A DNA stretch of 64,000 bases from Candidatus Moraniibacteriota bacterium (GTDB lineage Bacteria; Patescibacteriota; Minisyncoccia; Moranbacterales; UBA2206), in the NCBI GenBank assembly GCA_049303905.1, contig JBAQNP010000005.1, positions 61,655 through 125,654 on the forward strand, read 5' to 3'. How positions within the stretch are numbered: position 1 is the first letter of the stretch; each line of letters opens with the position of its first letter. Below the pieces are notes generated by a model. The model saw only the letters and a program-made list of their open reading frames with translations, had not been told where the DNA came from and did not search any database. Below, in pieces: positions 8,231-61,099 of this stretch. A program made the translations under genes and the position numbers.

Positions 8231-8248
8231 GCTATATGTTTAATGTTT

Positions 8249-13178: not shown

Positions 13179-13388
13179 TTCTTGCGAAGCATTAATCAAA
13201 TAGAGACACAGAGTCACTAAAGAATTAAATTTTTTTCAAAATTAAACTCGAACTCTTAATTTTATAACCAAAAATTGCCCTCAATCGACGGCTGCCAATG
13301 GAAATTTTTGGATAAAATTCGAGCTCTTAAACAAAAATTTTGTAAAAAAATTAATTCTTTAGTAGTTTGAATATAATTTTTAGAATTA

Positions 13389-13432
13389 TTCGTAGATTAG
13401 TATATTTGTATTTGATTAGTAATTCGTAAGTA
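13389..13432. repeat. ATTCGTA/TACGAAT-containing intergenic repeat; one member of a dispersed family
   Basis: attcgtagattagtatatttgtatttgattagtaattcgtaag. Related copies sit at 48551-48595 and 61014-61060 (reverse complement). Confidence 0.6.
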
Positions 13433-18853: not shown

Positions 18854-18955
18854 TGTCATTCCTGCGAAAGCAGGAATCTAGTGTAGAAACTTAGTGATTT
18901 GAGACTGGATTCCTGCTTTCGCAGGAATGACAATATACACAAGCCCTTCAGGAGG
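18854..18955. terminator. Cluster of GC-rich hairpins between convergent genes (bidirectional terminators)
   Basis: ATTCCTGCGAAAGCAGGAAT and ATTCCTGCTTTCGCAGGAAT together form an outer TGTCAT…ATGACA inverted repeat. A third hairpin is AGCCCTTCAGGAGGGCT. Confidence 0.6.
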
Positions 18956-28704: not shown

Positions 28705-28797
28705 TTTGTGTGTATGGTTAATTATTTATTTACGAAAATACGAATTAAACTAAATTACGAATTCGTACTTTCGCTAGATTCGTATTTTCGTAAATGA
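28705..28797. repeat. TACGAA-rich hairpin element (TTACGAAAATACGAAT … ATTCGTATTTTCGTAA)
   Basis: 16-bp perfect inverted repeat. Its last ~15 nt (cgtaaatgattattg) are identical to those of the 27421-27517 element, and both abut a stop codon. Confidence 0.8.
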
Positions 28798-30159
28798 TTA
28801 TTGTTTATTCTTGAGGTTGACTATATTCCCCGGTGGCACATCGGTTTTTCGCATATTTTGCGAGGAAATTCGCATTGGCTGAGGCCCTGGATTAGGCAAT
28901 GGTTGTTGTATGGGTTGAATAGTCTGTTTTTCATAGGGCAATTTTTGCGGAGAACTGAAATTAATGTTGCCGGCATTTCTATTTTCGGTAGCCATTCTTT
29001 CTTCTTTGAAAATATCTTTTGGTTTTACTTCTTGTTTTTGAGAATTATAAACTTCTTGAATATTTCTTTGCGGTGTTTGGTAAATCACTCTTGGAGGTTC
29101 GACCTCCCTTTTGGAGGTCGAACCTCCATTGGAAACGGCTTGCTCGTGTCTTGAAAAAACTATTTGTTTTGTGTTCACATTAACATCCACCAAGGAATTT
29201 TCGTCATAAGCCTTTAAAAGAAAAGAAATTTTTTCACGGTCAGTTGAGTTCAAAACCTTGGCATTTTCATTGCGGAAAAGGTATGTTCCGCGATCCATGG
29301 CACTGTGTGATTCAAAACCGAGGCTGAAAGTGTAATCCGAAAGCCAATTACTGATTGATGGTCGCACCGGTTCTGGAAAATTTTTGAGTTTGATGCGCAT
29401 TGAAGTGACAAGTTGTTCACCAATTTCGGGAAATTTTTTGAGAGCGTCGGGAAGGAAGAGTTGTTCGATTTTTGTTTGTTCTTCCTGACTGTTAGAAATA
29501 GAGTTTTGAGGGATATAATTATGTAGGGTTTGGGGTTGTGGAGAAGAAAAATTCTGGGATGATTGATGATTGGAATTTAGAATTGCATCAAGTGTTGGTC
29601 CTGTAGCTGGTAAGGTAGTGACAAGCAAATAGTCATAAATATGAATAAACTCTTTGAGGCGACTTTTTTCAATAGGATTTAATGATATAGCATTTCGGTT
29701 GGTGTTTACGAAATCAACTGAAGCTGATAAATTTCTGGTTTTGATGTTATGATTTTTCTCAAATTCTGCTATCCATTCCGAGACTGTAAGCGATCCAAGT
29801 TTTTGTTGATTTTCCATAAGTGCTTGTTTGAGTTTTTGTCTGAGGGCATCACGAGGAATTTCTGGGACTAGAAATAATTTTACAGTCAATCTATTTTCCA
29901 TATCAATTTCTGCATCAAAAGAAGAAAGAAAATTATCTCTTAAAACTCTAGCTGTTTCTTCATCGGAAAGTTGTGGAATAGCGGTTAGATTAAGATAGAT
30001 GAGGATTTTTTGTAATTTCTCAAATAAGACAGGATTATTTTTTTGCACATTTTCTGACGCTAAAAAATCTCGCACATCCTTGATGAGTTTTTTTGCTTCC
30101 ACATCATCATAATGATGAATAGCATCATTCGAATTTTTTATAAAATCATTTGTTAACAT
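28798..30159 (-). CDS. Hypothetical protein within the T4SS-like cluster
   Basis: 453-aa ORF with no TM segment. The C-terminus is Gln/Pro-rich. Confidence 0.45.
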   Translation of the reverse strand: MLTNDFIKNSNDAIHHYDDVEAKKLIKDVRDFLASENVQKNNPVLFEKLQKILIYLNLTAIPQLSDEETARVLRDNFLSSFDAEIDMENRLTVKLFLVPEIPRDALRQKLKQALMENQQKLGSLTVSEWIAEFEKNHNIKTRNLSASVDFVNTNRNAISLNPIEKSRLKEFIHIYDYLLVTTLPATGPTLDAILNSNHQSSQNFSSPQPQTLHNYIPQNSISNSQEEQTKIEQLFLPDALKKFPEIGEQLVTSMRIKLKNFPEPVRPSISNWLSDYTFSLGFESHSAMDRGTYLFRNENAKVLNSTDREKISFLLKAYDENSLVDVNVNTKQIVFSRHEQAVSNGGSTSKREVEPPRVIYQTPQRNIQEVYNSQKQEVKPKDIFKEERMATENRNAGNINFSSPQKLPYEKQTIQPIQQPLPNPGPQPMRISSQNMRKTDVPPGNIVNLKNKQ

Positions 30160-30171: not shown

Positions 30172-32385
30172 CTATGGCTTAAAATTAGGATCATTTTTAA
30201 ATCCATCTACCCTTCTAATAAACTCATCAATTATTCCAGCTTGAGTTGGATTCGCAGTTCTAATTGAATTGGCGTGAGTTCGCATCTCAGGAATTTTTTG
30301 AGACATTCTATCAAAAAAATCTTTTCTGGCTCGGTTTAATTGACCTAATTCAGAAGGTGTCAGAGATTCAAGTTGCTTAAACCCAATTCCATGAATATTG
30401 CCAGTAGTTCCATCCGCATTTTGTTGTAAAAATGAATTCCAATGCCACAAGTCAGTTTTTGTTTGAGCTTTTATATTAGAAGCTTTTCCGGCTGCCATTG
30501 CAAATTGACCTGAATCAGCTCCTGTTGCTGGATCTAAATCGATATCTTCATTTTTTTGATATTTTCCTGTTTTTATATTAAACTTGCCCATTCCAAAGAG
30601 TTGAAAATTTCCTTTTCCGAATGAAATCTCTCCAATATCTGCTAATTGTTTTGCTGCTTGTTCTTTTGACATTCCTGATTTAGTTAATTGTGCGTATATT
30701 CTCTCCCTAACATTTGTTGGATCCATTGTATCTCCTTCTTCTTGCATAAAATCATTGAGATCATTATTTGATGCAATAATACGAAGTGTTGCTGACATTT
30801 TTTCATGATCACCAGCGCTTCTCGCCTTTTTGTATTCATTATAGAGATATCGAAAATCAGTACTAGTGCTTTGTAATTCCTTTTCTTTAGTGGCAATATT
30901 TCCTTGAATTGCAGTGTCTTTGAAATTTGTTTGCTCACCACTAATTTTATTTAATTTATCTCTCCATGATCCAGTAGCAATTTTGAAAGCTTTTCTTTCT
31001 TTTTCTGCTGTATTTTCTTTCCAGGCGGTTTTGAAAGCGGTTGGGCTTGCCCACCACATGTATTTGCTTTTTGCTAAGCCTCGATCTGTTTTTTTCAAAA
31101 GAGTAGACCCGCCCCATTTACCTGCCCTGACTGGCCAGTTCATGACTTTTTTCCCTTGACCGACTACCGCGCCTGCTCCGACAGCGCTCATTGATTGAGC
31201 GACGCCAATTCCCATCCAAAGAATAACGATTGGAATAGTGAAAAATGAAATACTAGCTATAAAATCTGGATTATCAGTTTGACTAGCGGCTATTTTTTGC
31301 ATAGAACCCATTCCACTTTTTCCAATCTCAGTCATCATTCCAGAGGCGATATACATCATAAATAGCATTATTGGCCCAAAAAAAGCATAATTGAAAAGTT
31401 TTTTCCACCAATCTGAGGCATAGGAAGAAAGTTGTGGAATGGCAGCTCCGACAAAAGCCAGAGAAGAAAAAATAATGAGTATTGCTAATGCAATTGTTCG
31501 CAAAACAAAGAGAACGGTGATAGTTACTATGGTTACGGCAAAGATAAAAACAAAAATAACAGCTGCAAGTAAGTATGTTGAATCAAAGGAACCAATTTCA
31601 TTATGAATAATTTCTGGTAATTTAGCAGCGCCAGCAAAATCAACCATTGTTCTTGCGCCATTGATTCCAAGGGCATCGGCAAAATAAAACATCATCACAT
31701 TAGAAACATCAATAATGAAGCGAGAAATAGGAAAGCTAAAATTGACTAAAAGTGCCATAATCACAATCCATAACAATGTTTTTTTGTAATTATATTTGTC
31801 AACTTGAAAAACAGTAGCAAAAGCGCTAAAAAGCAAAAACATAATAAATGAAACATTAAGCACATCGCGGACCATTGTCCAAGCATTATAAACGGAATTA
31901 TTGTTTATAACAGCAGTGACATTTTCTGGTTTCATTATCCATTCAAAAAGAGAAGCCGCAGATTCCATTAGCCATACCATGAGATTTAACAACATAAGCA
32001 GAGTACAATTCATGATGTTTTTACTAAATTCAGGGAGCGTACAAGAATCTGGACTAGGGTTAAGGGTAGTAGATGCACTATTATAGTTGCCAAGGCCAAT
32101 ATTAGAATCGGAATTGTCATCAAATGCACAATTGTCGGAAGCAACATTTTTAGCTTTGCACAAATCTTGACATTTTGCTTGTGTGACATTTTCTCCTAAT
32201 GGAGTATTTATAACATCAACTCTTTCGAAACAGTCTCCGAGAGGTTCTTCTGCTTTTGCCTTCTCCCCTTTCCCAAACCCAAAACCAATCACCAATATAA
32301 AAATGATAGCTAGTAAAATTTTGCGGGGATTTGTTTTTATGTGTGTTTGTTGGGACATGTATCTTATAAAATTTTCAATTTTCAA
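30172..32385 (-). CDS. Large polytopic membrane protein, VirB6/TrbL-like candidate
   Basis: Signal peptide. A Cys-containing extracytoplasmic domain. About 7 TM helices centrally. A C-terminal soluble domain. This topology is typical of Gram-positive VirB6 homologs. Confidence 0.4.
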   Translation of the reverse strand: MKIENFIRYMSQQTHIKTNPRKILLAIIFILVIGFGFGKGEKAKAEEPLGDCFERVDVINTPLGENVTQAKCQDLCKAKNVASDNCAFDDNSDSNIGLGNYNSASTTLNPSPDSCTLPEFSKNIMNCTLLMLLNLMVWLMESAASLFEWIMKPENVTAVINNNSVYNAWTMVRDVLNVSFIMFLLFSAFATVFQVDKYNYKKTLLWIVIMALLVNFSFPISRFIIDVSNVMMFYFADALGINGARTMVDFAGAAKLPEIIHNEIGSFDSTYLLAAVIFVFIFAVTIVTITVLFVLRTIALAILIIFSSLAFVGAAIPQLSSYASDWWKKLFNYAFFGPIMLFMMYIASGMMTEIGKSGMGSMQKIAASQTDNPDFIASISFFTIPIVILWMGIGVAQSMSAVGAGAVVGQGKKVMNWPVRAGKWGGSTLLKKTDRGLAKSKYMWWASPTAFKTAWKENTAEKERKAFKIATGSWRDKLNKISGEQTNFKDTAIQGNIATKEKELQSTSTDFRYLYNEYKKARSAGDHEKMSATLRIIASNNDLNDFMQEEGDTMDPTNVRERIYAQLTKSGMSKEQAAKQLADIGEISFGKGNFQLFGMGKFNIKTGKYQKNEDIDLDPATGADSGQFAMAAGKASNIKAQTKTDLWHWNSFLQQNADGTTGNIHGIGFKQLESLTPSELGQLNRARKDFFDRMSQKIPEMRTHANSIRTANPTQAGIIDEFIRRVDGFKNDPNFKP

Positions 32386-32492
32386 TTATCAAATATCTCT
32401 GGTTTGAAATTTTTTACTTAAAAATTCATTGAAAATTGAAAACTGAAGCTTGTTTTTGTATTTTGTTCGTTTCATTCGCATGTGGTTCGCCC

Positions 32493-32533
32493 GCCTCGAC
32501 TCGCGGAGACCGCTTGTCGACGCGAGGCGGGTA
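32493..32533. repeat. GC-rich ~42-bp palindromic element (CCCGCCTCG…GTCGACG…CGAGGCGGG)
   Basis: It stands out in an AT-rich genome. Near-identical copies at 43778-43819 and 60967-61013 (reverse complement). Confidence 0.75.
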
Positions 32534-32551: not shown

Positions 32552-33550
32552 TTATAAAACAGTATCCCCGATTGATTTTTTTATATCAGTAGCTGTTTGT
32601 CCGGAATTTTTCACGGCGTCCACTCCGAATCTGGCGGCTGGACCGTAGGTGGTCATAGCGGAACTGGCGGCGCCGGTATATTTGGTTGCGCCGGCGGTAG
32701 CTTTGGCTGTTTTTGATTTGACACTCACAAATCCTTGCATAACCAGGCGACTAGTCATCTGAGTGACCAAGGCAGTGGCGATTTCCGGAACGCTAGAGGC
32801 GGCTTCCAAAAGGCGATCAGGCATAGTTTGCTTGCTGTTCATCAGTGCCCCGACGGTGCTTCCAGGCATAGTTTCTGTACCAGGAGAATCTCCAGGAACT
32901 CCCAAATATCCTCCACCGGCAATACCTTTGGCCATAGCGATTTTTTCTTCATTTTCAAGTACTCTTTGACGTTCAGTTTGAAGTGTCGTATAAACACCAG
33001 GTAAATAATTTGGTCTTTTAACAGAATTTCCTAGATTTTTAAAAGTGCCACTTTGAAGTGCTTGCCGTGGATTACCCTCATAGGTCACTTGAGGATTTTT
33101 AGCGTTTCCTAATAATTGGCCAACTTGTCCTAATTGAGCCGCATAATTATTTGGTCCGGAAAAACCTTCGGTGGAATAGAGAGAGGAAGAATTTCTTCCA
33201 CGAGTCATTTGACTGATATAGTCGTTCATATATAAATTTGTTTTGTTTTGTGGTTCGTTGATCAAATAATCTTCCCAATTGACAATAAAAGATGCTTGTC
33301 CACCAGCACCTCGTCCCGCCAAGGCGTCAACTTGCATACTGAGCATTATAACGGCTTGTTGCTTCAGTGTACCAACCATAAGACCATCTATCATATCCTC
33401 TATTATCATTAGTCCTTCCATAATAGCCGGATCAAGTCCTGGAATCCAAGCTGCCTGAGTTTTAGGCACACTGGAAAAGCAGAAAATTACTAGTATAAAA
33501 ACTATTAAAAATATTTTTATTATAATTTTATTTTTATAACGAAAAAACAT
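32552..33550 (-). CDS. Secreted hypothetical protein
   Basis: N-terminal signal peptide. Ala/Gly/Thr-rich. No recognisable family. Confidence 0.45.
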   Translation of the reverse strand: MFFRYKNKIIIKIFLIVFILVIFCFSSVPKTQAAWIPGLDPAIMEGLMIIEDMIDGLMVGTLKQQAVIMLSMQVDALAGRGAGGQASFIVNWEDYLINEPQNKTNLYMNDYISQMTRGRNSSSLYSTEGFSGPNNYAAQLGQVGQLLGNAKNPQVTYEGNPRQALQSGTFKNLGNSVKRPNYLPGVYTTLQTERQRVLENEEKIAMAKGIAGGGYLGVPGDSPGTETMPGSTVGALMNSKQTMPDRLLEAASSVPEIATALVTQMTSRLVMQGFVSVKSKTAKATAGATKYTGAASSAMTTYGPAARFGVDAVKNSGQTATDIKKSIGDTVL

Positions 33551-36492: not shown

Positions 36493-37368
36493 TTAATCTT
36501 GAGATTGCTTCGCTTTGCTCGCAATGACAGGTAGGGAGTTGGCTATTTTTTTCCAATCCTCCACGCTTAGTTCTTGTGCTCTTTGTTTTGGCGTAATGCC
36601 AATTTTTTTTAGTTTTTCCTCTACTTCTTTTTTGTCTAATTTGAGACTAGCGGATAAATTATTGACCAGTGTTTTTCTTTTAGACGAAAATCCCGCCTTA
36701 ACAATTCTAAAAAAATTCCCAGCCCCCTTTTCTTTAGTAAGGGGAATGGTTGTGGACGAGGTAGTGGATTGAAAAGGAGTAATTTTTATCACTGCCGAAT
36801 CCACTTCTGGCACTGGAAAAAAACTTTCTTTGTCAACATAAAATAGTAATTCCGGCTTGGCATAGTATTGCACACTTACAGCTAGAATACTCATTTGTCC
36901 GGGATTACTACAAATACGCTCCGCTACTTCCTTTTGCACCATCAGAATCATTTCACTTGGTGGAAACTTAGTTTCTAGAAAGAGTTGGATAATGGGCGAA
37001 GTAATATAATATGGAATATTGGCAACAACTTTGTAATGAATTGTGCCACCTTCTCCTTTGTAAGGAGAGGGGCTGGGGGTGAGGTTTGAAATGATTTCTG
37101 GCAAATTAATTTTTAAAATATCAGCATTTATTATTTCTATTTTTTTACTATCCTTATATTGTTTTTTTAATTTATTAGCCAGAGCTCCATCAACCTCGAT
37201 AGCCAAAACCTTGCCAGCATGCTTAAATAATTTTTCCGTGAGCACACCTTTTCCTGGTCCAATTTCAATTACAAAATTGTCCGATTTTAAGTTGGCGGAT
37301 TGAATAATTTTTTCTAAAACAGTTGTATCTCTTAGAAAATTTTGTCCTAAAGATTTTATTGGTTTCAT
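36493..37368 (-). CDS. rsmA: 16S rRNA (adenine1518/1519-N6)-dimethyltransferase RsmA/KsgA, carrying an in-frame palindromic insertion
   Basis: SLGQNFL, EIGPGKGVLT and NIPYYITSPI are KsgA motifs. The segment LTPSPSPYKGEGG is encoded by the ~40-bp GC-rich palindromic element at 37048-37088. Confidence 0.85.
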   Translation of the reverse strand: MKPIKSLGQNFLRDTTVLEKIIQSANLKSDNFVIEIGPGKGVLTEKLFKHAGKVLAIEVDGALANKLKKQYKDSKKIEIINADILKINLPEIISNLTPSPSPYKGEGGTIHYKVVANIPYYITSPIIQLFLETKFPPSEMILMVQKEVAERICSNPGQMSILAVSVQYYAKPELLFYVDKESFFPVPEVDSAVIKITPFQSTTSSTTIPLTKEKGAGNFFRIVKAGFSSKRKTLVNNLSASLKLDKKEVEEKLKKIGITPKQRAQELSVEDWKKIANSLPVIASKAKQSQD

Positions 37369-40725: not shown

Positions 40726-40874
40726 TTCGTTAAAAATGAGCAAAGAATATCGGCAAGATTTTGAGGAAGATTGCTTATGTGCCGGGTTTATTATTTGTAA
40801 GTGAAAATAAAATAAAGCTTGATAAGTTAAAACTTATAATTAGATTTGTGAGTAATAAAATAAAGAGTCTTTTT

Positions 40875-42404
40875 TTATTCCGTCTTAAAGCGGTATTGCA
40901 AGGCTTCGGCGATGTGGGTGGGGGAAATTTTTTCGGAACTTTCGAGATCGGCGATGGTGCGGGCGACTTTGATGATGCGATAATAGGCGCGGGCGCTCAG
41001 GTGAAAATTAGAAACCGCTTTTTTCATAAGTTCCAATGATTCAGGCGTAAGGCGACAGAAATTTTTTATTTGTTCACTGCCCATTTCGCTGTTGGAAATA
41101 GTTTGAGATCCGGAAAATCTTTCTTTTTGAATAGCGCGAGCTTTTTCGACGCGAACTCGGATGTCGCAAGATTTTTCTCCAACAGTGGCATCTTCAGAAA
41201 GTTTTTCAAATTTGATGCGCGGGACTTCGACATGGAGATCGATTCTGTCCATAATCGGTCCGGAAATTTTTCGTTGATATTTTATGATGGAAGCCGGATT
41301 GCAGACACAAGTTTTTTCCGGATCAGTGGCATTGCCACAAGGGCAGGGATTCATTGCGGCGATCAAAGTAAACCTCGCTGGAAATTCCATTGTGCCTTGG
41401 GCGCGAGAAATTGTTATTATTCCATCTTCCAGTGGTTGTCTCAAATTTTCCAAAACATTGCGAGAGAATTCAGGGAATTCATCCAGAAACAATATTCCAC
41501 GATGTGAAAGGCTGATTTCTCCAGGGCGAGGAAAGGTTCCTCCACCAACCAAAGAAACGGAAGAAGCACTGTGATGTGGGGAGCGAAACTGACGTTTGGT
41601 GATGAGTGAGTCGGAACGTTTTAGTTGTCCGGCAATGGAAAATATCTTTGTCACTTCCAAAGCTTCGGGAATGGTGAGTTTGGGCAAAATCGAAGACATG
41701 GTTTTGGCGAGAAGGGTTTTTCCACTTCCCGGTGGGCCGTTCAAAATCACATTATGTCCTCCGGCAGCCGCAATTTCAAGCGCGCGTTTAGCATGTTCTT
41801 GTCCGCGAACGTGTGACATATCCACAAGATAATCATCATAGGAAAAAAGTTCCTCCAGATTTATTTTTTCCGCGGGAATAATTTTTTGTTCTCCGGAAAG
41901 ATGATCAATAAGTTCAATGAGAGTACTTACTGGAAAAATTTCTACGCCAGAAATGACAGAAGCTTCGCCGATATTGTCCTTGGGGATATATAATTCTTTG
42001 ATATTTTTTTCTTTGGCTAAAATTGCCATTGGAAGCACACCTTTGATTGGTCTGACTTTTCCATCCAGCGACAATTCTCCTAGGAATATTTTGTCTTTGA
42101 AATCAAAGGTCAATTGATCAGTGGCTAAAAGAAAACCAAGGGCGATTGGCAAATCATAAATCGGACCTTCTTTTTTGAGATCAGCCGGAGCCAAATTGAC
42201 AGTGACGCGTCCAGCGCGATGCGGTGGCAAGAATCCAGAATTTCGAATAGCGGCGCTCACACGATCGCGAGATTCTTTGATGGCGGTATCAGGCAGTCCA
42301 ACAATATTGAATTGATGAAGACCAGCGCTGACTGTGTCTGCTTCCACTTCGACGAGCTCGCTTTTGAGTCCGATTGTTGCGGCCGAAAAAACTTTTGAAG
42401 ACAT
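40875..42404 (-). CDS. YifB/ComM-family Mg-chelatase-like AAA+ ATPase
   Basis: The N-terminal Lon-like domain (…ESRDRVSAAIRNSGF…) plus the Walker A site GPPGSGKT match. Start placed at MSSKVF; the longer ORF-track start lies inside CATGAAR repeats. Confidence 0.8.
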   Translation of the reverse strand: MSSKVFSAATIGLKSELVEVEADTVSAGLHQFNIVGLPDTAIKESRDRVSAAIRNSGFLPPHRAGRVTVNLAPADLKKEGPIYDLPIALGFLLATDQLTFDFKDKIFLGELSLDGKVRPIKGVLPMAILAKEKNIKELYIPKDNIGEASVISGVEIFPVSTLIELIDHLSGEQKIIPAEKINLEELFSYDDYLVDMSHVRGQEHAKRALEIAAAGGHNVILNGPPGSGKTLLAKTMSSILPKLTIPEALEVTKIFSIAGQLKRSDSLITKRQFRSPHHSASSVSLVGGGTFPRPGEISLSHRGILFLDEFPEFSRNVLENLRQPLEDGIITISRAQGTMEFPARFTLIAAMNPCPCGNATDPEKTCVCNPASIIKYQRKISGPIMDRIDLHVEVPRIKFEKLSEDATVGEKSCDIRVRVEKARAIQKERFSGSQTISNSEMGSEQIKNFCRLTPESLELMKKAVSNFHLSARAYYRIIKVARTIADLESSEKISPTHIAEALQYRFKTE

Positions 42405-42441
42405 AAATTCATGAAACATGAAGCATGAAACACGAAACAAT

Positions 42442-42897
42442 CTAGTTTAATTTTTGTTTCATGTTACATGTTATATGTTGCGTGATTAATATGATTATTC
42501 CTATTGTAATATAAATATCTGCGAAATTAAATATGGGCCAGAATTTTAGGTCGATAAAATCGATGACACAACCGAAGTGGAGCCTGTCAATAATATTAGC
42601 TATTGCTCCTGATAAAATTAACAAAAATGAAATAGATGGTATTACTTTAAAATTTTCAATTTTCAATTTACAATTTTCAATGAATTTTTTAATGTTCAAT
42701 TTTAAATGATAAATAAAAAATATTAAAAGTATAAAAGCTATTATAATAAAAAGATAATTAAATTTTAATCCAAAAGCCAAATTTTCATTGCAAATATAAA
42801 ATCCGCTTTTAGTGCGGATGATATATTTTGAAATCTGATCAAGCGAAATTAGAAATAAAAAACAAACAGTATAAATTATTTTTTTATATTTCCCCAT
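42442..42897 (-). CDS. lspA: Lipoprotein signal peptidase (signal peptidase II)
   Basis: 151 aa, 4 TM helices, the conserved FNFADIYITIG region. Confidence 0.75.
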   Translation of the reverse strand: MGKYKKIIYTVCFLFLISLDQISKYIIRTKSGFYICNENLAFGLKFNYLFIIIAFILLIFFIYHLKLNIKKFIENCKLKIENFKVIPSISFLLILSGAIANIIDRLHFGCVIDFIDLKFWPIFNFADIYITIGIIILITQHITCNMKQKLN

Positions 42898-42913
42898 TCG
42901 TGATTATTAGTAT

Positions 42914-43267
42914 TTAGCAGTCAAGACAAACTCGTGCGCTTGGATTAACCCGAAGTCTTTCTAGCGGAATATCCTTATCACAATTTTCGCATTTTCCATA
43001 AGTACCTTTTTCCATCTTTTCCAAAGCATCAAGAACATTTTGTAGTTGTTTTTCTAAAGAATTTTCTACGGATAAGTTTTGGGAATATTGATCAACTTCA
43101 GTTGCATTATCATCTTTATCATCGCCAAGTTCTTCAAAAGAAGTTTCATAATCCCCCTCTTCCTTGTTGATTGGTTTTGCGATTCGTCCTAAGTTTTTTT
43201 CCAAATCTTCTTTCTCATTGAGAAGCATTGCTTTTAGCTCATCTAATGTTTTTTGGTCGATAGCCAT
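42914..43267 (-). CDS. DksA/TraR-family C4 zinc-finger protein
   Basis: An acidic coiled-coil N-terminus and the C-terminal CENCDKDIP…VCLDC four-Cys finger. Confidence 0.65.
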   Translation of the reverse strand: MAIDQKTLDELKAMLLNEKEDLEKNLGRIAKPINKEEGDYETSFEELGDDKDDNATEVDQYSQNLSVENSLEKQLQNVLDALEKMEKGTYGKCENCDKDIPLERLRVNPSARVCLDC

Positions 43268-43333
43268 AAATTTATTTTAATCTAATTATTACTTAGCTAA
43301 TACAATTTTAGCAGAGAAAAAGGCTAATGTCTA

Positions 43334-43717
43334 TCAAAGACTGGGAATATGTTTTATTTTAGCTTCATTTGTTTCTTTATTTATCCAGACAGAAATAGCA
43401 TCAAAGCGGTAAGGCGCATTATGTAGATTTTTTGTGCGCAGGTAGACACTGGCAATTTTGTCGAGTTTTTTGAGTTTGGTGTAGGTAATATTCTCTTCCG
43501 GCAAAGTATTTTTATATTTTTCATATCCCCTAGTTTTGACTTCCACAAAAACAATTTCACCATTTTTCAATTCTTTGGCTATAATATCAATTTCTCCCAA
43601 TCTTCGGCCAAGATTATTTTGAAAATTGCGATCCAAAATTTTGTAGCCATTATTCTGTAGAAATTTGACGGCGGCATCTTCTCCGAGATTGCCTAAATTT
43701 TTAGTTTCAGTAGTCAT
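43334..43717 (-). CDS. YraN-family (UPF0102) endonuclease-like protein
   Basis: LGEDAAVKFLQNNGYKILDRNF…GEIDIIAK…VFVEVKTR is the YraN signature. Confidence 0.7.
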   Translation of the reverse strand: MTTETKNLGNLGEDAAVKFLQNNGYKILDRNFQNNLGRRLGEIDIIAKELKNGEIVFVEVKTRGYEKYKNTLPEENITYTKLKKLDKIASVYLRTKNLHNAPYRFDAISVWINKETNEAKIKHIPSL

Positions 43718-43740
43718 GAATATATTATAACAGATTTATA

Positions 43741-43855
43741 ATTTACGAAAATACGAATTAAACTAAATTACTAATTCGCCCAGCCTCGACTCGCGAAGAC
43801 GCTCGTCGACGCGAGGCGGGTACTTTCGCTAGATTCGTATTTTCGTAAGGATAAC
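43741..43855. repeat. Composite repeat: a TACGAA hairpin element (as at 28705-28797) interrupted by the GC-rich 42-bp palindrome
   Basis: The outer ~75 bp align almost base-for-base with 28721-28797. The inner block 43778-43819 matches 32493-32533. Confidence 0.8.
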
Positions 43856-44699
43856 AAAAAACACCCTTCTTAGGTGCCTCTAAAATCTAATAAAATTCTC
43901 CAACTTCACCCGCCCGATTACGCATAAGGTATGGTAACCGGGCATCCTATGCCCGTATAATAAATATAATTGACAAGAATGCCCGGTGTTTGTCATGTAT
44001 TAACATATAATACGGAAATTTTTTAGCCCGGGTGAGAGGCATCGAAATTATGATATATATGTATTTTATATACATGCCGTTTTTAGTATTCTTCTGACTT
44101 TTTTTGAATACTCTTCTTCTGCCATCCTCTGGCATAAAGCCTTTGGATTTAAAGAACTAACTTTTTATTTTTTATTTTTGTTTAAAAAGTTTTTATGACG
44201 TGTCCTCTTGAAAATATAACTTTATTTATAGTCTCAAGCGGACACATCATTTTTTGTTTTTGTTTTGGGTCTCCAAGGTCAGAAATCTTGGAGCGACTCC
44301 TGCGCGTTGGCAGGAATACTTGGACAGCAGAATAGTTTTCAATCGTAAATAGGGGGAAATTACGATTGAAAACTATTCTGCCATACCGCTGCGCAAGTTT
44401 TTAATGTTCAATATAACTATTATATCAAAAAAATTGGTAAAAGTCAATTATGCGCATGAATAATAATTCAGAAGACCATTGTTTATGCAGTTAAATGATA
44501 TTTTTTGGATAATTTTTCCTCTCTTTACTTTTTTAAAATAAAAATAGCTATTTTTTAAATGAAATCCTTTATTTCTATTGAGTTATCCACAGGTTATGCC
44601 GTTATAACTTAAATTATACTATTTTTAAGTGAGTATCATAGGTTTGTCTAGCAGAATTTCTTGTAAAATACAATTAAAATTGTTTAAGTTATAACGGTA

Positions 44700-45977
44700 T
44701 TATTCAGATAATCGATCTAAGGCTGAAAATAAGGTAGTTTTAGTAGTTCCGATGACTAATTTATTCCCAACAAATGCATAATCTAGTGCATAATCATCAG
44801 CTGAGGTGATATTCGTATAGCGGACAGCATGATTTTTGTATGTAGCAGAGGAAAAAGTACTTATAGTAGGCGCAGTTATGGTTGGATAAAGTGGGGATAA
44901 GCTAATTGGAAGGCTTTTTTCTTCTTTTGTGAGAGCGGTTTTCATGAAATTGTCATTTAGTACAGTCAAAAGTAATCCAAATCTTGTTTTGTCGCCGTAA
45001 TTATAGATATAGAGACTGAAGTCTTGGCCAATTTGAGCGGAAATTCCCGGAGTTAGGTTTATGCCGAGGGTTGTGGCAAAATCTTGAAAAGTGACAGGGG
45101 TGTTTGTTTCGTCAGTTATTAGAAATTCAAAAACTCCTATTTCATTAGTTGCCAAAACTTTAGTGGTATATTCATTTAGTGTTTGTTTTAGGTTTTCAGC
45201 ATTAGCCTGAGTCAGATTGATTTGCAAATAGTTGGAATTTTTGGATGAAAGAGTTGGGATTGGCGTTGTTTCCTCGGGCAGCGTTTCTTCTTCGGGAAAA
45301 GTCGTCTCGGGCTTGTCAATGATAATATCTTTTTGAACCGGAACTGATATGCGAGTCATCCAAAAATAGTATCCACCAGCGCTGGCAATTAGAATGACAA
45401 AAATCACAACTGCAATGGTAATTGCTTTGCCAATGCCATGATGTGGTTCGGCAATATTTTCTTTTGGAGTTTCTTGAAAAGTTTTTTGCATAGTAGGCTG
45501 AGAATTTTTTGGTATTTCTTGTGATTTGATATTTATTTTTTCTTCAACTTTCTTAGCATTAGTTGGTCTTGGCGCAGGCGCAGGAACTTCTCTTGGTGTT
45601 TCAACAGCTATTTTTTTTGGAAGTTCTACAGATTCATCAAAATAAAGGGGCTCATTTTTTGTTTGGGCAATTTTAGGCGCATAATTAGCAGGCTTTTCTT
45701 GAGTTTTTGGGGTTTCTGGGCGAAAGAACGGTCCATTTTTTTCCGGAGAAATATTTTGTGGTTTTGCATCAAAAGAAAATGTTTTTTTTGGCTCAATATT
45801 TTCAATCTGAATTTCTTTTTTGAGAGAAGGATTTTGCAATTCTTTTAAATCTTCTTTCATAGTATGAATTGGAAAATCTTCCAATTTGAAATTGTCTTCA
45901 TTGAGATTTATTTTTTCATCGCTTGTCTGATTTTTATTTTTTGGATCATTTGATCCTTTTGAATTTAGTCCAAACAT
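44700..45977 (-). CDS. Hypothetical Pro/Lys-rich single-pass membrane protein
   Basis: 425 aa. Low-complexity N-terminal half, one TM helix, C-terminal globular part. Confidence 0.45.
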   Translation of the reverse strand: MFGLNSKGSNDPKNKNQTSDEKINLNEDNFKLEDFPIHTMKEDLKELQNPSLKKEIQIENIEPKKTFSFDAKPQNISPEKNGPFFRPETPKTQEKPANYAPKIAQTKNEPLYFDESVELPKKIAVETPREVPAPAPRPTNAKKVEEKINIKSQEIPKNSQPTMQKTFQETPKENIAEPHHGIGKAITIAVVIFVILIASAGGYYFWMTRISVPVQKDIIIDKPETTFPEEETLPEETTPIPTLSSKNSNYLQINLTQANAENLKQTLNEYTTKVLATNEIGVFEFLITDETNTPVTFQDFATTLGINLTPGISAQIGQDFSLYIYNYGDKTRFGLLLTVLNDNFMKTALTKEEKSLPISLSPLYPTITAPTISTFSSATYKNHAVRYTNITSADDYALDYAFVGNKLVIGTTKTTLFSALDRLSE

Positions 45978-46127
45978 TTTGTTAAAAAATAATTTTTATT
46001 TTATTGAAATATTATTTGTAGATTCGCATCGCTATTATTATTTTACAATAGATTTGAAAATTTGGGAAATGGGATATTTTAAAATTAAAAAGCGGAGAGT
46101 GATTATTGCATCACCTCCGCTTTTTTT

Positions 46128-46215
46128 ATTTGTCATGCTGAATTTATTTCAGCATCTCTTCTTTAGATCCTGAAACCCGCCTGCCGGCGAGGCATGGCAA
46201 GTTCAGGATGACAAG
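46128..46215. terminator. Nested-hairpin terminator element (TGTCATGCTGAA…TTCAGCATCT…ATCCTGAAC…GTTCAGGATGACAA) downstream of pnp
   Basis: A second copy lies at 57951-58015. This copy also carries a GC-rich palindrome insert (CCGCCTGCCGGCGAGGC). Confidence 0.65.
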
Positions 46216-46223
46216 GAAAATAA

Positions 46224-48332
46224 TTATTCCTTATTCACATTCTTCATAGTGAGACTTATTTTTCCTTGATCGTCAATTGTTTTGACGCGTACGGGAACAA
46301 TTTGGCCAACTTTCAAGTAGTCTTCTACATTTTCTACGCGTTTATCGGCAATTTCACTGACGTGAATGAGACCATCTTGTCCTGGGAGAAGTTCGACGAA
46401 AGCGCCGAAAGCCATAATTTTGACTACCTTAGCTTGGAAGATTTCACCGGCTTTGACTTCTCGGGTGAGGTTATTAATCCATTCTTTCGCCTTTTCAGCA
46501 GACTGTTTGTCAACGGAAGTGATGAAAACTGAACCGTCGTCTTCAATGTCAATTTCTACTCCAGTTTCGTCAATTATTTCATTGATGACTTTGCCACCAG
46601 TACCGATGACATTTCTAATTTTGTCAGGATTGATATGCATAACGATAATGCGTGGAGCATATTGAGACATTTCAGGATTTGGAACAGCGATAGTGTCGGT
46701 AATTTTCTTGAGAATTTCCATTCTATTTTTTTGCGATTGGATAAGAACGGCTTCGAGCATTGGAATGGTCACTCCATCAAGTTTCACATCCATTTGCAAA
46801 GCGGTAATTCCTTCGCTTGTTCCAGCCGCTTTGAAGTCCATGTCGCCATAATGATCCTCGAGTCCTTGAATGTCCGTTAGAACTTTAAATTTTTGATTGT
46901 CCTTTTGATCAACGATAATTCCCATGGCAATTCCTGAAACAGGACGCTTAATCGGCACACCAGCATTCATAAGAGAAAGGGTGGATCCACAAGTAGAAGC
47001 CATTGAAGAAGAACCATTGGAAGAAAGTGTTTCACTCATAAGAAGAATTGTATATGGAAATTCTTCTTTGGAAGGCAAAACTGGCACGAGGGCTTTTTCT
47101 GCGAGTGCTCCATGGCCAATTTCTCGTCGCCCTGGACCGCGCATTGGTCGTACTTCTCCGACTGAGTATGGCGGGAAGTTGTAATAATGAATATATCTCT
47201 TTTTAGTGTCTACTTCCATCGTGTCGATTATTTGTTCCGCTCCCGGAGCACCAAGAGTTGTGACGGTGAGGGCTTGAGTTTCTCCGCGAGTGAAAAGCCC
47301 GGTACCATGAGTGCGTGGCAAAATTCCTACTTTGCATTCGATATGACGAATTTCTTCTAGTTTCCGTCCATCCGGTCGCATTTCTTTTTCTAGGATATTT
47401 TGATGTACAATTTCATCAGATACTTCTTCGGATACAATATCCGCTATTTCTTTGAGTTTCTCTGCTTCATCCGGATAGGTTTCCTTGATGAAAACAGAAA
47501 TTTTTTCACTAATTGCTTTGGTTTTCTCTTCAATAACCTTTTTGTCTTTATCATAAAGCGCTTCGGCTAGTCCTTCTGACAAAAGCATTTCCTTGATCTT
47601 ATTTTCAAATTCCTCTGTTCCTTTGACAAGCGCTGGCTCAGATTTTTCTTTTCCAATTTCTTTTTGAATTTGTCCAACAAATTCTGAGATTTTTCCAATG
47701 GCTTCATGAGCGAATTTAATTGCTTCGATCATTTCTGATTCTGGTACTTCCTTAGAAGCGCATTCAATCATATTGATTTTGTCTTGTGTTCCACTGACGA
47801 GAAGATCGAGTGATCCGTCAGTTAATTCTCCATTGACTGGGTTTAGGATTAGTTCTTCTCCAACTTTTCCTACGCGAACGGCGCTCACGGGTCCATTCCA
47901 AGGAATGTTGGAAATGGAAAGCGCGGCTGAGGCAGCGATAATAGCAACTACATCCGGATCGTTTTCGCCATCATATGATAAAACAGTACAAACTACTTGT
48001 ACATCATTTCTCATTCGAGAGTTGAAAAGTGGGCGAATAGTTCGGTCAACTGCGCGACCAGACAAAATTGCATCGTCGCTTGGTCGGCCTTCACGCTTGA
48101 TGAATCTCGAACCTTTAATTTTCCCAGCGGCATAATATCTTTCTTCAAAATCTACCATTAGTGGAAAATACCCACTCACTCTTGATGCAGATTTACTCAT
48201 GACAGCTGTAGCAAGCACCACTGTGTCGCCATAACGAGCCGTTACAGCGCCGTTGGCTTGACCGGCCAAAAGACCGGTTTCGATTTCCAAAATTCGTCCC
48301 CCAACTTGGAGGGACCATTTTTTTTGTTCCAT
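46224..48332 (-). CDS. pnp: Polyribonucleotide nucleotidyltransferase (PNPase)
   Basis: Two RNase PH domains, plus the KH and S1 domains (…GEIFQAKVVKIMAFGAFVEL…). 702 aa. Lies downstream of rpsO. Confidence 0.9.
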   Translation of the reverse strand: MEQKKWSLQVGGRILEIETGLLAGQANGAVTARYGDTVVLATAVMSKSASRVSGYFPLMVDFEERYYAAGKIKGSRFIKREGRPSDDAILSGRAVDRTIRPLFNSRMRNDVQVVCTVLSYDGENDPDVVAIIAASAALSISNIPWNGPVSAVRVGKVGEELILNPVNGELTDGSLDLLVSGTQDKINMIECASKEVPESEMIEAIKFAHEAIGKISEFVGQIQKEIGKEKSEPALVKGTEEFENKIKEMLLSEGLAEALYDKDKKVIEEKTKAISEKISVFIKETYPDEAEKLKEIADIVSEEVSDEIVHQNILEKEMRPDGRKLEEIRHIECKVGILPRTHGTGLFTRGETQALTVTTLGAPGAEQIIDTMEVDTKKRYIHYYNFPPYSVGEVRPMRGPGRREIGHGALAEKALVPVLPSKEEFPYTILLMSETLSSNGSSSMASTCGSTLSLMNAGVPIKRPVSGIAMGIIVDQKDNQKFKVLTDIQGLEDHYGDMDFKAAGTSEGITALQMDVKLDGVTIPMLEAVLIQSQKNRMEILKKITDTIAVPNPEMSQYAPRIIVMHINPDKIRNVIGTGGKVINEIIDETGVEIDIEDDGSVFITSVDKQSAEKAKEWINNLTREVKAGEIFQAKVVKIMAFGAFVELLPGQDGLIHVSEIADKRVENVEDYLKVGQIVPVRVKTIDDQGKISLTMKNVNKE

Positions 48333-48395: not shown

Positions 48396-48594
48396 ACTTA
48401 AAAGTTAAATACTGAATTGTGGCTTTGAGTGGCTTTTCTTTAGCCTTGGGCGTGATTTTAAATTACTTAATTATTGTTAAAATTCTAGCTTATTTTAGGG
48501 GTTTTGTCAATTTTTTTAGGAAAAATAAAAAAACGGAGCATAATCCGTTTTTTGTATATTCGTATATTTGTAATAGATTAGTAATTCGTAAAGT

Positions 48595-51190: not shown

Positions 51191-54100
51191 ATGCATGAAA
51201 TATTGGAAAAACTTAATGCTCCGCAAAGAGAGGCGGTGACGACGACGGAAGGGCCGGTTCTCATTATTGCGGGGGCAGGATCGGGGAAAACGCGCGCACT
51301 AACACACAGGGTGGCGTATTTGATTTGTGAAAAAAAGATTAGTCCTCGAAGAATTTTGGCGGTGACTTTTACTAATAAAGCGGCGGGAGAGATGAAGGAA
51401 AGGATTAGGGAATTACTTAGTGCAAATACGCGAATTGATGCGAATGATGCGAATGACCTCACCCCCAGCCCCTCTCCTTATAAAGGAGAGGGTAGCCAAT
51501 ATGATATGCCAACAGTCGGAACTTTTCATTCTATCTGCGTGAGGATTTTGCGTCATGAGATTGAGAAGATGGGATATAAAAGCTCTTTTAATATTTTTGA
51601 TGATCAAGATCAGCTGGCTCTCATGAAAAAAGTGATGAAAGAAATGGAAATTAACACCGATCAATTCAAACCAAAAGCAATTCTTGGCGCAATTTCCAAT
51701 GCGAAAAATGAACTCAAGAGTGCGGAGGAATTTTTAGCAGGAGTGGGTGGATATTTTGAAGAGATGGTGGCCAAGATTTATCTGAACTATCAAAAAAAAT
51801 TGAAAGATCAAGGTGCTTTGGATTTTGATGATATCTTGATGATTATAGTGAAGCTTTTCCAAAAGTTTCCAGAAGTTTTGGAAAAGTATCAGAATTTTTT
51901 TCAGTATATTATGGTAGACGAATATCAAGATACTAACCGCGCGCAATATTTGTTGGTAAAATTGTTGTCGGAAAAATATAAAAATTTGTGTGTGGTGGGT
52001 GATGATTGGCAATGTTTTCCGAGGGGAATAAAAATATCAGTGGATGACAAAAAAACCAAAAATATTGAGAAAATAAGAAAAGGAGATGCAATTATGTCAG
52101 CTTCAGGGCAAGGTGAGATTTGCCCTCAATCGATAGAAAGAAATAAAAAATCTAAATTCAAGGGAGAGCTAATAAAAATCACGACAAAATCAGGTAAAAG
52201 TTTAATGGCTACACCTAACCATATTCTTTTTTCTAAATTATCTTTAAGCGCAAATATATTCTATGTATATTTAATGTATAAAAAAGAGATAGGATATCGT
52301 ATTGGAATGGTAAAGGGAATTAGGATAGTTAAATCAAATGGACTTAATGCGGGATTAAATGTCAGGGCTAATCAAGAACGAGCAGACAGGATGTGGATTT
52401 TGAAAATTTGCCAGACAAAAACCCAAGCGCAATACTGGGAGCAATATCTTGGATTTTTTTATGGTATTCCGACGTTGGTTTTTATTGCGGGCAGTGGAAG
52501 AAAAATGAAATTTGAGCAAAAATATTTGGATGATTTGTATAAAAATATTAATACCTTAGAAAGAGTTAAGAAAATATTTTTAGATTTTAATTTAAATTTT
52601 GATTATCCTCATCATATTCCGCAATCAACCATAAGAAGTGGAATAAAAAGAGTTTCTGTTAACTTTACTTTATTTAGCGATCGCAGAAAAGGAATTTCAA
52701 TTAGCAATTGGGGAAGACACAGGATAAGCATTAATTCGAATGACAAAGAGACTAAAAAAATACTAGAGTTAGCTGGTTTCAAAACGAGAAAAGGAAAGAA
52801 GAATGATTGGCGATTGGAAATTTCTAGCAGAAAATATGAGGAAATGGAAAAGGTTCTAAATAAAATTATAAAAATTATTCCTAATATAGTGGTCACCAAA
52901 AGAGCGCTCTTAGCGGGAGGCAAAAGATTTTATTTTCAACCGGCGGGACATATCAGAGAAACAATGCTCGTGCCTATTTTAGAAAAAGGAAAAATTATTG
53001 AAGAGGAGATAGAAAAAGTTGAAAAAATAAAATATGCTGGTCCGGTTTATGATTTAGATGTAGCAAATGTGCATAATTATATTGCAAATAATTTTGTGGT
53101 GCATAATTCAATTTATGGATGGCGAGGAGCCAATATTCAAAATATTTTAGATTTTGAAAAAGATTATCCGCAGGCGCGCGTGATTAAGTTGGAGCAGAAT
53201 TATCGCTCGACGCAAAATATTTTAGACGCGGCTTATGGTGTGATTTCAAAAAACATTAATCGCAAGGACAAAAAAATTTGGACGGATAATCAAAGCGGGC
53301 ATCTTCTTTCTAGTTTTGAAGCAGAAGATGAAAAAGAAGAAGCACAGTTTATTGTGGATGAGATAAAAAAAATATGTCATCCTGAACTTGTTTCAAAATC
53401 TAATGAGGAGATTCCGGATCAAGTCCGGAATGACAAATACAGATTTTCCGATTTTGTAGTTCTCTATCGAACCAATGCGCAGTCTCGAATGATTGAAGAA
53501 GCGATGCTTCGAAATTCTATTCCGTACCGAATTATTGGCGGGGTAAAATTCTACCAAAGAAAAGAAATTAAAGATGTGATTGCATATCTGCGAGTGATTA
53601 ATAATTTTAATGATGAAACTTCGCTGGAACGAATTATTAATGAACCGAAGCGAGGGATAGGCGATGTAACACTGAGCAAGTGGATAAAAATAGCTCGATT
53701 AGATGAAAATAATTTAATAGATGCAGGGATTAAAATTAAACAGTTGCAAGATACAAAATACAAGATACAAGATACAAGACTGGATGCAATTGTGAAATTT
53801 TGCGAATTCATTCAGAGAATGTCAGAGCTCAAAGAAAAATTATCTCTTACTGATTTTATCCAAAAAATTTATAGTGAATCGGGGTATGAAAGATTTCTTA
53901 TGGACGGAACTGAAGAGGGAGAAATGAGAAATGAAAATGTTAGAGAGCTTCTCACTGTTGCAAAGAAATATGACGAGTATGAACCAATGGAAAGTTTGAA
54001 ATTATTTTTAGAAGAAGTAGCTTTGGTTTCTGACACGGATAATATTGATCAAGCTGTTGATGCGGTACATCTTATGACACTTCACAGTGCTAAAGGTTTA

Positions 54101-57052: not shown

Positions 57053-57126
57053 GGGTGTTTAGCTCAGCTGGTTAGAGCGTCACATTGACATTGTGGAGGT
57101 CACTGGTTCGAGTCCAGTAATACCCA
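57053..57126 (+). tRNA. tRNA-Val (anticodon GAC)
   Basis: Manual cloverleaf fold. Acceptor GGGTGTT/AATACCC (one G·U pair). D arm GCTC/GAGC. Anticodon arm TCACA-TTGACAT-TGTGG. T arm ACTGG-TTCGAGT-CCAGT. Confidence 0.7.
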
Positions 57127-57214
57127 CAGCATAAGAAATATGATAGAGTTAAAGAGTCGAGAAAGTACATTTAAAAAGATAATGGGACCATAGCTCAGTG
57201 GTAGAGCGCGCGGC

Positions 57215-57589: not shown

Positions 57590-57838
57590 AATCTAATTAT
57601 AACACAAAATGAATAATTGCAACAGGGCTGTTTGAGAAGTAATTTTCAAATGAATTCTGTCAAATTCGGGGAAATCTTAAGTTTTTATTTTATATAAAAA
57701 AATGACAATCCCGAGCCAAGTCCCGACGCTAAGTCGGGAAAGGTGTAGAGACTAGATGGCAGACATCCCGAGTATTTGGGATGAAGGGATAGTCCAGCTT
57801 ACAAATTCGAAAGAAGTTGCGAAAGCAATAGTGAGATG
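57216..57838 (+). mobile_element. Group I intron (IC3-like, tRNA-intron type) with an antisense HNH ORF
   Basis: The core matches cyanobacterial-type tRNA introns: CAATCCCGAGCCAAGTCC, GGGAAAGGTGTAGAGACTAGATGGCAG, and the P7 pair AGACUA/UAGUCC. It ends in omega-G at 57838. Confidence 0.65.
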
Positions 57839-57920: not shown

Positions 57921-57950
57921 TCTGGAATAATATAATTTTGTCATGCTGAA

Positions 57951-58015
57951 CTTGTTTCAGCATCTTAATCGTTAGAGATCCTGAAACGAGTTCAGGATGA
58001 CAATCGAAGATTAAT
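57951..58015. repeat. Second copy of the TGTCATGCTGAA…GTTCAGGATGACAA nested-hairpin element
   Basis: It aligns with 46128-46215 minus the GC-rich insert. Confidence 0.75.
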
Positions 58016-60966: not shown

Positions 60967-61060
60967 CCTGCCTCGCGTCGACGAGCGGTCGTTTCCGCGA
61001 GTCGAGGCTGGCGAATTACGAATCTATACAAATATACTAATGTACGAATTATATAAAAAC
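60967..61060. repeat. GC-rich 42-bp palindrome (reverse-complement copy) followed by a TACGAAT-type repeat, upstream of ftsH
   Basis: cctgcctcgcgtcgacgagcggtcgtttccgcgagtcgaggctgg, then cgaattacgaatctatacaaatatactaatgtacgaatt. Confidence 0.75.
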
Positions 61061-61099
61061 GTAGTAATTACTTATTAAGTTATTGTTTCATATTTCATG

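Follow-up and report, generated by a model that had tools for sequence, protein, structure and literature searches.

Rickettsia palindromic elements (RPEs) lie in frame in unrelated protein genes and also occur in intergenic DNA and RNA genes (PMC10969869). The GC clusters of yeast mitochondria are GC-rich mobile hairpins with a putative AG target duplication, and mobility via endonucleases encoded elsewhere has been proposed for them (PMC4478555). Here we describe a short GC-rich imperfect palindrome with three copies in a 64,000-nucleotide stretch (the window) of contig JBAQNP010000005.1, from a Candidatus Moraniibacteriota bacterium of the Patescibacteria, or candidate phyla radiation (CPR; assembly GCA_049303905.1, positions 61,655 to 125,654). 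By analogy, its behavior would place it closest to those two systems. We put the probability at roughly 0.8 that the window copies are a non-autonomous, selfish mobile element of 36–51 bp, common throughout Patescibacteria/CPR; the copies can be explained without any host function.

RPEs and the CPR element are both selfish palindromic repeats of AT-rich, reduced genomes, and in both cases in-frame insertion would add a conserved peptide. RPEs measure about 100–150 bp, add some 30–50 amino acids and are confined to Rickettsia, whereas the CPR element is 36–51 bp long (mostly 42 or 45), would add 12–15 amino acids and has a near-identical core across several CPR phyla; the likeness is one of analogy, not of membership. 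We know of no transposase for either. The resemblance to yeast mitochondrial GC clusters and to the "byps" of Magnusiomyces lies in a GC-rich hairpin of about 30–55 nt in an AT-rich genome and in nested or merged copies. GC clusters, like the CPR element, are polymorphic between relatives, and one of them, GC42, likewise has 42 nt; the CPR element differs from them in lacking a duplication, in its G^TA target preference and in its bacterial rather than mitochondrial host. Byps, as Lang et al. are said to have reported in 2014, break up reading frames, and ribosomes skip over them, whereas copies of the CPR element keep the frame. To our knowledge, the sequences of GC clusters and byps are unrelated to it.

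A sequence-only reading of the window had called the palindrome REP- or Correia-like, after the repetitive extragenic palindromes (REPs) and the Correia elements. That likeness does not hold, as about half of the copies lie in open reading frames (ORFs), there is no conserved flanking tetranucleotide, the length is 36–51 bp and no target is duplicated. [quoted passage not shown] REPs lie outside genes, are as a rule limited to one genome or genus, and have a conserved 5' tetranucleotide and a Y1 HUH partner. Shared with REPs and bacterial interspersed mosaic elements (BIMEs) are the short GC-rich imperfect palindrome (20–40 nt in REPs, here 36–51 nt with a 9-bp terminal stem) and the lack of a target duplication, and the REP–RAYT pair supplies the notion of a palindrome family matched with a dedicated nuclease gene that palindromes flank; unlike REPs, the CPR family has half of its copies within genes, extends across phyla and is linked to a gene for a GIY-YIG nuclease. 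Correia elements measure 100–150 bp and carry a TA duplication; the CPR element has terminal inverted repeats like theirs and those of MITEs, but at 36–51 bp and without target-site duplication. PATEs carry a pair of distinct subterminal hairpins, lie 3' of a specific tetra- or pentanucleotide target in a fixed orientation and show a strand bias. The CPR element is likewise hairpin-based and inserts without duplication next to a short target word, but it has a single hairpin whose foot is the element end, occurs in both orientations and shows only a weak strand bias.

Duplication-free insertion in the window

All three near-identical copies proposed by the sequence-only reading exist, with limits now refined by comparison with empty sites (Table 1), and each is intergenic. 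Their G+C content, about 74%, is as striking as had been claimed in a window of about 35% (30%–40% in 2-kb bins). The half-sites CCCGCCTCGACTCGCG and GTCGACGCGAGGCGGG (16 nt) each have three matches with at most three mismatches, compared to 0.04 expected from shuffles, and 0 of 100 shuffles reach three. When the three copies are aligned, the arrangement TTCG/CCCGCCTCGACTCGCG-(9–13 nt)-GTCGACGCGAGGCGGG/TA is conserved.

Copy 2 interrupts an AT-rich TACGAA palindrome, and two references show this host palindrome unbroken. A Candidatus Moranbacteria UBA4824 locus (L051) is syntenic with window positions 40870–48332 at about 85%–87% identity, and at the site of copy 2 it has identical flanks and a gap of exactly 42 bp. 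The unbroken paralogue within the window gives the same exact 42-bp gap with identical flanks. The insertion point, ambiguous by 1 nt, separates TTCG from TA, and the target site is not duplicated. Copy 2 is a lineage-specific insertion. The reverse case is also found: L051 carries a host palindrome together with a GC element where the window, at 42914/42915, has neither, and the TACGAA host palindromes may therefore be mobile too. Copy 3 is present in the UBA4824 orthologue (L039) with one nucleotide different and was hence in place before the two genomes diverged. In the same loci, relaxed searches turned up copies that have decayed through point changes without compensation, as well as nested copies and sister families whose termini are similar. 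The element is thus mobile and non-autonomous, inserts without duplication in either orientation, and decays by point mutation after insertion.

These observations bear out the earlier suggestion of a mobile palindrome, with one copy nested inside another repeat: there are empty sites with exact 42-bp gaps, nested insertions, at least 116 further loci, and filled and empty pairs in orthologous genes. An absence of copies beyond the window, together with an absence of nesting, had been named as grounds for abandoning it; both copies and nesting were found. The target-site duplications it had suggested looking for are lacking at the filled and empty pairs.

The ends of the element are 9-bp perfect terminal inverted repeats, CCCGCCTCG ... 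CGAGGCGGG, around an asymmetric core. In its arms, CCCGCC-TCGAC-TCGCG and GTCGA-CGCGA-GGCGGG, the order of the inner two blocks is swapped, so that no simple palindrome results. When folded as DNA or as RNA, the 9-bp terminal stem is robust and the interior ambiguous (DNA, −13.5 to −15 kcal/mol; RNA, −22.6 to −24.8 kcal/mol; z-scores about −2.5 to −3.6). An H-type pseudoknot joining the swapped core blocks was considered and rejected on steric grounds, as both connecting loops would have zero length. No Rfam family fits the element at gathering or at E-value thresholds.

Copy 1 lies between two minus-strand genes (30172–32385 and 32552–33550) that have no Pfam match, and its flanks are similar to the TTCGCA-type host palindromes of three other loci (L032, L056 and L047). 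Copy 2 is 62 nt upstream of the start of a UPF0102 (yraN-like) gene identified by Pfam. Copy 3 adjoins a TACGAA-type repeat at 61017–61059 and ends 10 nt upstream of the ftsH ATG (60956), where it could have an incidental effect on translation or mRNA stability.

Table 1. Copies of the element in the window, their host repeats and reference sites
Feature	Position	Strand	Remarks
Copy 1	32490..32531	+	42 nt; limits from empty-site comparison; flanked by TTCG (left) and TAG (right)
Copy 2	43779..43820	+	42 nt; extra A in left arm (CCCAGCC); at TTCG^TA, center of AT-rich palindrome
Copy 3	60967..61011	-	45 nt; in tilS-ftsH spacer
Left arm of the AT-rich TACGAA host palindrome split by copy 2	43740..43778	.	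Repeat scan and empty-site alignment
Right arm of the same TACGAA host palindrome	43821..43848	.	Repeat scan and empty-site alignment
Unbroken paralogue (empty site) of the copy 2 host palindrome	28723..28800	.	Equivalent insertion point 28765/28766 (TTCG^TA)
Short GC palindrome CCGCCTGCCGGCGAGGCATGGCA, related family	46177..46199	.	Loop of second hairpin, TGTCAT..ATGACA double-hairpin repeat
Unbroken double-hairpin paralogue, empty-site reference for the 46177 insertion	57937..58005	.	Repeat scan

Spread, target preference and residence in genes

The count of copies beyond the window that had been suggested was made by scanning 185,579 species-representative genomes with the pattern CCTCGACTCGCGN{4,24}GTCGACGCGAGG, which fixes 24 core bases. 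At least 116 loci match; the family counts given here rest on the matches listed, which together with the window provided 127 copies for analysis. Among the 80 record titles listed, 31 are Moranbacteria, 27 are other CPR, eight are unclassified and 14 carry other labels, and 58 of the 80 are thus CPR or Patescibacteria. Other CPR labels among the matches listed include Parcubacteria, "Patescibacteria group", Saccharibacteria, Gottesmanbacteria and Woesebacteria; non-CPR labels include Bdellovibrionales, Gammaproteobacteria and one Bathyarchaeia. The loci titled "uncultured Bdellovibrionales" (L002, L059, L061, L063 and L080; CAZFCX01), from a metagenome-assembled genome (MAG), are near-identical or about 85% identical to those of a Patescibacteria MAG (L045 and L058; JAKLIO01), with L080 and L045, and L002 and L058, as near-identical pairs. 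Hence, these titles are probably wrong. Neither a set of 2.9 million viral contigs nor one of 72,556 plasmids contained a copy, so nothing points to a phage or plasmid as vector. Searches of the literature for the sequence, the peptide, and CPR in combination with palindromes or with GIY-YIG and tRNA found no earlier description, within an incomplete coverage of journals.

The element has a marked target preference. In the flanks of 118 non-redundant sites, a purine precedes the element in 79% and a pyrimidine follows it in 70%. G^TA or its complement TA^C occurs at 28 of the 118 sites (2.0 expected) and TTCG^TA at 19 (0.1 expected). The preference is therefore for G^TA, and it is strongest for TTCG^TA inside AT-rich TACGAA palindromes. 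Beyond this, flank profiles show only the purine^pyrimidine tendency, and no fixed word of the GTAG type outside CCCG...CGGG. The earlier proposal that the element inserts into existing hairpins is true of copy 2 and of the short palindrome at 46177 but fails as a general rule: around 121 copies, the flanks show no greater self-complementarity than random positions do (p = 0.21 among non-coding copies), so that hairpin insertion is a trait of some hosts, namely the TACGAA palindromes and a double-hairpin repeat.

The alternative that survives best, though we consider it unlikely, is a REP-like element moved as a single-stranded hairpin by a RAYT/IS200-type Y1 HUH transposase. It would account for a short GC-rich imperfect palindrome, for insertion without target duplication, as in IS200/IS605 chemistry, and for the tetranucleotide-like target TTCG^, seen at 16% of sites. 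The element, however, is found in both orientations relative to TTCG, its orientation shows only a weak bias with respect to local GC skew, a proxy for the replication strand (68:47, p = 0.06), and it lacks a conserved flanking GTAG-like motif. About half of the copies are intragenic, and they are single rather than grouped in BIME-like clusters. We searched all ORFs in about 1.03 Mb around the copies by phmmer with three Y1 seeds. This returned one weak hit, a Y1_Tnp gene confirmed by Pfam (E = 1e-9), about 1 kb from a copy in L070; it is the single such gene in that sequence and is not flanked by family copies. As far as these seeds test it, no Y1 protein is encoded among the window ORFs. 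The RAYT-like gene itself (L070:1782–2450) has small perfect palindromes upstream (1751–1773) and downstream (2887–2915) that are unrelated to the GC element, and may form with them a separate REP–RAYT pair in a CPR genome.

It is considerably less probable that the hairpin is kept by selection for a host function, as a terminator, an mRNA stabilizer or a protein-binding site, rather than being mobile DNA. The three window copies are indeed all intergenic and near gene ends, copy 3 is conserved in two genomes just before ftsH, and a GC hairpin lies 9–29 nt before the start codon of many GIY-YIG genes (see below). This explanation is countered by presence and absence at orthologous sites with identical flanks, by both orientations relative to transcription, by the lack of a T-run after the hairpin, by decay through uncompensated mutations, and by the placement of about half of the copies within ORFs of unrelated genes.

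That last class is large. Stop-free segments of at least 200 amino acids contain 63 of the 127 copies, and 70 of the 127 are intragenic under a stricter rule (a stop-free segment of at least 150 amino acids, with a margin of at least 30 nt). The length is a multiple of three (45, 42, 39 or 36 nt) in 64 of these 70 (91%) but in 32 of the 57 copies elsewhere (p = 2.8e-6; the Fisher test used 31/57 for the non-intragenic copies), and a 38-nt variant is almost confined to positions outside genes. One of the six orientation and frame classes accounts for 34 of the 70 (binomial p = 7e-10) and encodes PASTRGD(D/A/N)(R)SSTRGG; the second, with 14 copies in antisense, encodes PPRVDE.S(S)PRVEAG. Stops are absent from all six frames in 73 of 91 distinct variants. 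Judged by length and frame, copies in genes would survive as in-frame, hydrophilic inserts of 12–15 amino acids, typically PASTRGDDRSSTRGG. A 43-amino-acid tandem peptide query found no match in a database of 5.8 billion proteins.

The host proteins are housekeeping proteins by Pfam, among them GyrB, UvrA, UvrB, SecA, SecDF and the ATP synthase alpha/beta subunit. BLASTP among the loci yielded many filled and empty orthologue pairs at 65%–86% identity with exact gaps of 13–15 amino acids. GyrB (L001 and L110) shows reciprocal 14-amino-acid gaps at 84% identity, and UvrA (L010 and L067) shows gaps of 15 and 14 amino acids at 86%; further pairs involve a glycosyltransferase, a radical-SAM protein, a class I aminoacyl-tRNA synthetase and a CCA/polyA polymerase. 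In DNA alignments of these pairs, the junctions are clean and without duplication. One site has the element in opposite orientations in two orthologues, while a third orthologue lacks it (L077, L102 and L026). The GyrB gene L110:3031–6042, in addition to its in-frame GC element, has an intein (Pfam Intein_splicing, residues 468–763).

The constraints on length, stops and frame are those that translation predicts, not RNA excision or ribosomal bypass. They bear on a further alternative, slightly less likely again, in which the element acts at the RNA level, either as an intervening sequence or intron (archaeal bulge-helix-bulge-like, or excised by RNase III) or through translational bypass like that of the mitochondrial byps. 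A stable RNA hairpin (−23 to −25 kcal/mol) in essential genes and tRNA-like sequences would fit such a role, as would a tRNA-Glu(CTC) restored by in-silico deletion in L060. On the other hand, frame-biased, stop-free coding copies with lengths in multiples of three would be needless if the element were excised or bypassed, no Rfam family matches, the tRNA contexts are truncated duplicate fragments beside an intact tRNA, and L060 has a second, intact tRNA-Glu(CTC). Least likely of all is a Correia-like or conventional MITE, that is, an insertion sequence shortened by internal deletion, bounded by terminal inverted repeats and mobilized by a DDE transposase. Such an origin would explain the 9-bp perfect terminal repeats, the dispersal and the nested insertion but not the lack of target-site duplication at any empty and filled pair or a length far below that of known MITEs. 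In the roughly 1 Mb examined, nothing longer with these ends was seen.

Linkage to minimal GIY-YIG genes and tRNA fragments

In phage T4, the gene for the freestanding GIY-YIG homing endonuclease SegB lies among tRNA genes and promotes its own inheritance (PMC2330249). A comparable setting recurs around the CPR element. Many copy flanks resemble tRNA D-loops, and the recurrent layout is a 5' tRNA fragment containing a GC element, then an ORF of about 80 amino acids, then an intact copy of the same tRNA, which may be Glu, Met, Leu, Gln, Arg, Asn, Asp or Ala. Examples of such mini-cassettes, in CPR-like DNA, are L045:3480–3980 (−), L095:6380–6860 (+) and L117–L196 (80 metagenome loci). This ORF encodes nothing beyond a GIY-YIG catalytic domain (Pfam PF01541, E = 1e-13 to 1e-15). 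The CPR mini-cassettes thus place a GIY-YIG gene at tRNA genes like SegB, but differ in that the protein is reduced to its catalytic domain of about 80 amino acids, the tRNA is duplicated or replaced, and GC palindromes lie alongside; we know of no such palindromes described for SegB. A tRNA intron was also considered and rejected: in-silico excision followed by ARAGORN restored a tRNA in one case only (L060), the other flanks being truncated duplicate fragments. In L060, a full-length, element-interrupted tRNA-Glu(CTC) stands alongside an intact tRNA-Glu(CTC) next to a GIY-YIG gene, and since this intact second copy is present, the interrupted one need not be functional.

The loci span 830 kb and contain 20 GIY-YIG ORFs; 17 of these are no more than 500 nt away from a copy, and for 15 the distance is at most 100 nt. 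When all ORFs near copies were clustered without bias, GIY-YIG was the only recurrent neighbor besides host genes. To remove selection bias, 80 GIY-YIG loci were sampled from metagenomes by protein alone. In 60 of the 80, the GIY-YIG gene is followed on the same strand by a tRNA no more than 60 nt downstream, and an element of the present family or like it (family A) lies within 120 nt upstream in 16. Each of the 24 upstream regions that were read contains a tRNA fragment interrupted by a GC palindrome, with several families represented. By a generic detector, a GC palindrome is found within 130 nt upstream in 67 of 78 GIY-YIG windows (86%) but in only 77 of 790 control windows (10%), an odds ratio of 56. 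Of the 80 sampled loci, 28 contain the perfect 20-mer CCTGCCTGCCGGCAGGCAGG, ten of them in two or more copies. In two loci (L123:1380–1960 and L166:1390–1980), a resident tRNA (Glu and Gln, respectively) is split by a GIY-YIG and tRNA cassette, with near-identical, co-oriented GC palindromes at both junctions. The acceptor stem of the cassette tRNA-Glu in L123 differs from that of the resident gene, which suggests tRNA gene replacement.

For the movement of the element itself, the mechanism we infer is one in which a single strand would fold into a blunt-ended hairpin, the terminal 9 nt pairing to the very ends. This hairpin would be joined into a nick or break cut by a trans-acting nuclease, and replication would then fix an insertion without duplication, in either orientation. 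The best candidate for the nuclease would be the GIY-YIG protein of the tRNA-invading mini-cassettes, since it is the only gene recurrently linked to the palindromes; on this linkage, we propose it as the mobilizing partner only tentatively. Equally speculative is a wider scheme in which the GC palindromes (this family and relatives of it such as CCTGCCTGCCGGCAGGCAGG) may be the cis-acting sites of an undescribed class of CPR mini-cassette, where a GIY-YIG protein of about 80 amino acids and a tRNA gene invade or replace a resident tRNA, whose old copy is left behind with a palindrome breaking it up. In that scheme, palindromes that stand alone, among them the three window copies, and those in frame in GyrB, SecA and UvrA would be non-autonomous derivatives moved in trans, and the whole a GIY-YIG counterpart of REP–RAYT.

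Several points weigh against the interpretation of the copies as mobile DNA served by such a nuclease. The window encodes no GIY-YIG protein, and no enzyme is functionally tied to the element. Palindromes could accumulate in redundant tRNA fragments beside the cassettes, or be selected to disrupt them. GIY-YIG homing enzymes such as T4 SegB leave 2-nt 3' overhangs (PMC2330249), so scar-free insertion is not predicted by GIY-YIG cleavage itself. The case for translation of the copies in ORFs is drawn from frame and length statistics, and the intragenic class holds some false positives, window copy 3 being counted although it is upstream of the real ftsH start. Because the scan pattern fixed 24 core bases, conservation of the core is not to be judged from these loci, and every comparison genome is metagenome-assembled.

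Other repeats of the window and implications for CPR genomes

The fourth, shorter GC palindrome that had been assigned to the terminator element of pnp is real and is inserted in a hairpin loop, although about 10 nt to the right of the first placement at about 46167–46190. Its host is a double-hairpin repeat (46129–46215) just downstream of pnp. A 17-mer core of this palindrome recurs in four other loci (L025, L066, L093 and L094), and the palindrome belongs to a distinct but related family, close to CCTGCCTGCCGGCAGGCAGG. Double-hairpin repeats of the type TGTCAT...ATGACA, with variable interiors, also occur at 18854–18932, 53373–53439 and 57937–58005. This family looks mobile or fast-evolving, as the orthologous site in UBA4824 (L051) holds a different member. 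The TACGAA/TTCGTA AT-rich palindromes, the preferred landing site of the GC element, occur in the window as the unbroken paralogue of Table 1, the palindrome split by copy 2 (43740–43848), and those at 13378–13429, 48548–48591 and 61017–61059.

Other features were noted in passing. Arrays of the motif CATGAAAC/GTTTCATG occur near gene ends on both strands (8207–8261, 42404–42500, 54326–54439 and 61075–61129). A 41-nt sequence, GCCACCTTCTCCTTTGTAAGGAGAGGGGCTGGGGGTGAGGT, at 37045–37085 is found again, inverted, at 51456–51496, 14 kb away and with 93% complementarity. The 850 bp at 43850–44700 contain no ORF of 90 amino acids or more and have no Rfam match at the gathering score; positions 43850–44384 are conserved with UBA4824 (about 86%), and a long near-perfect hairpin lies at 44325–44383. 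This region may be an unannotated RNA gene. At 57186–57880, a tRNA with anticodon CAU, not called by ARAGORN, is apparently split by an insertion of about 650 nt that holds a group I intron (Rfam RF00028, 57605–57819, 81.7 bits) and an antisense ORF of 124 amino acids (57215–57589) with no Pfam match; a tRNA-Val lies just upstream (57053–57127).

CPR/Patescibacteria have tiny, streamlined genomes that are thought to hold little repetitive DNA, yet a selfish element of 42–45 bp with a near-identical core is found in several CPR phyla, in frame within core proteins. Two traits make it unusual: it is spread across phyla while residing in frame in core genes, and it shows a specific link with the minimal GIY-YIG/tRNA cassettes. 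In CPR genomes it can mislead gene calling, the prediction of tRNAs and the alignment of proteins, and its presence/absence polymorphisms could be used as strain markers. The element offers a compact bacterial parallel to the RPEs of Rickettsia and the GC clusters of mitochondria, whose way of transposing has been in question for decades, and the GIY-YIG linkage provides a concrete and testable candidate for a mobilizing enzyme.

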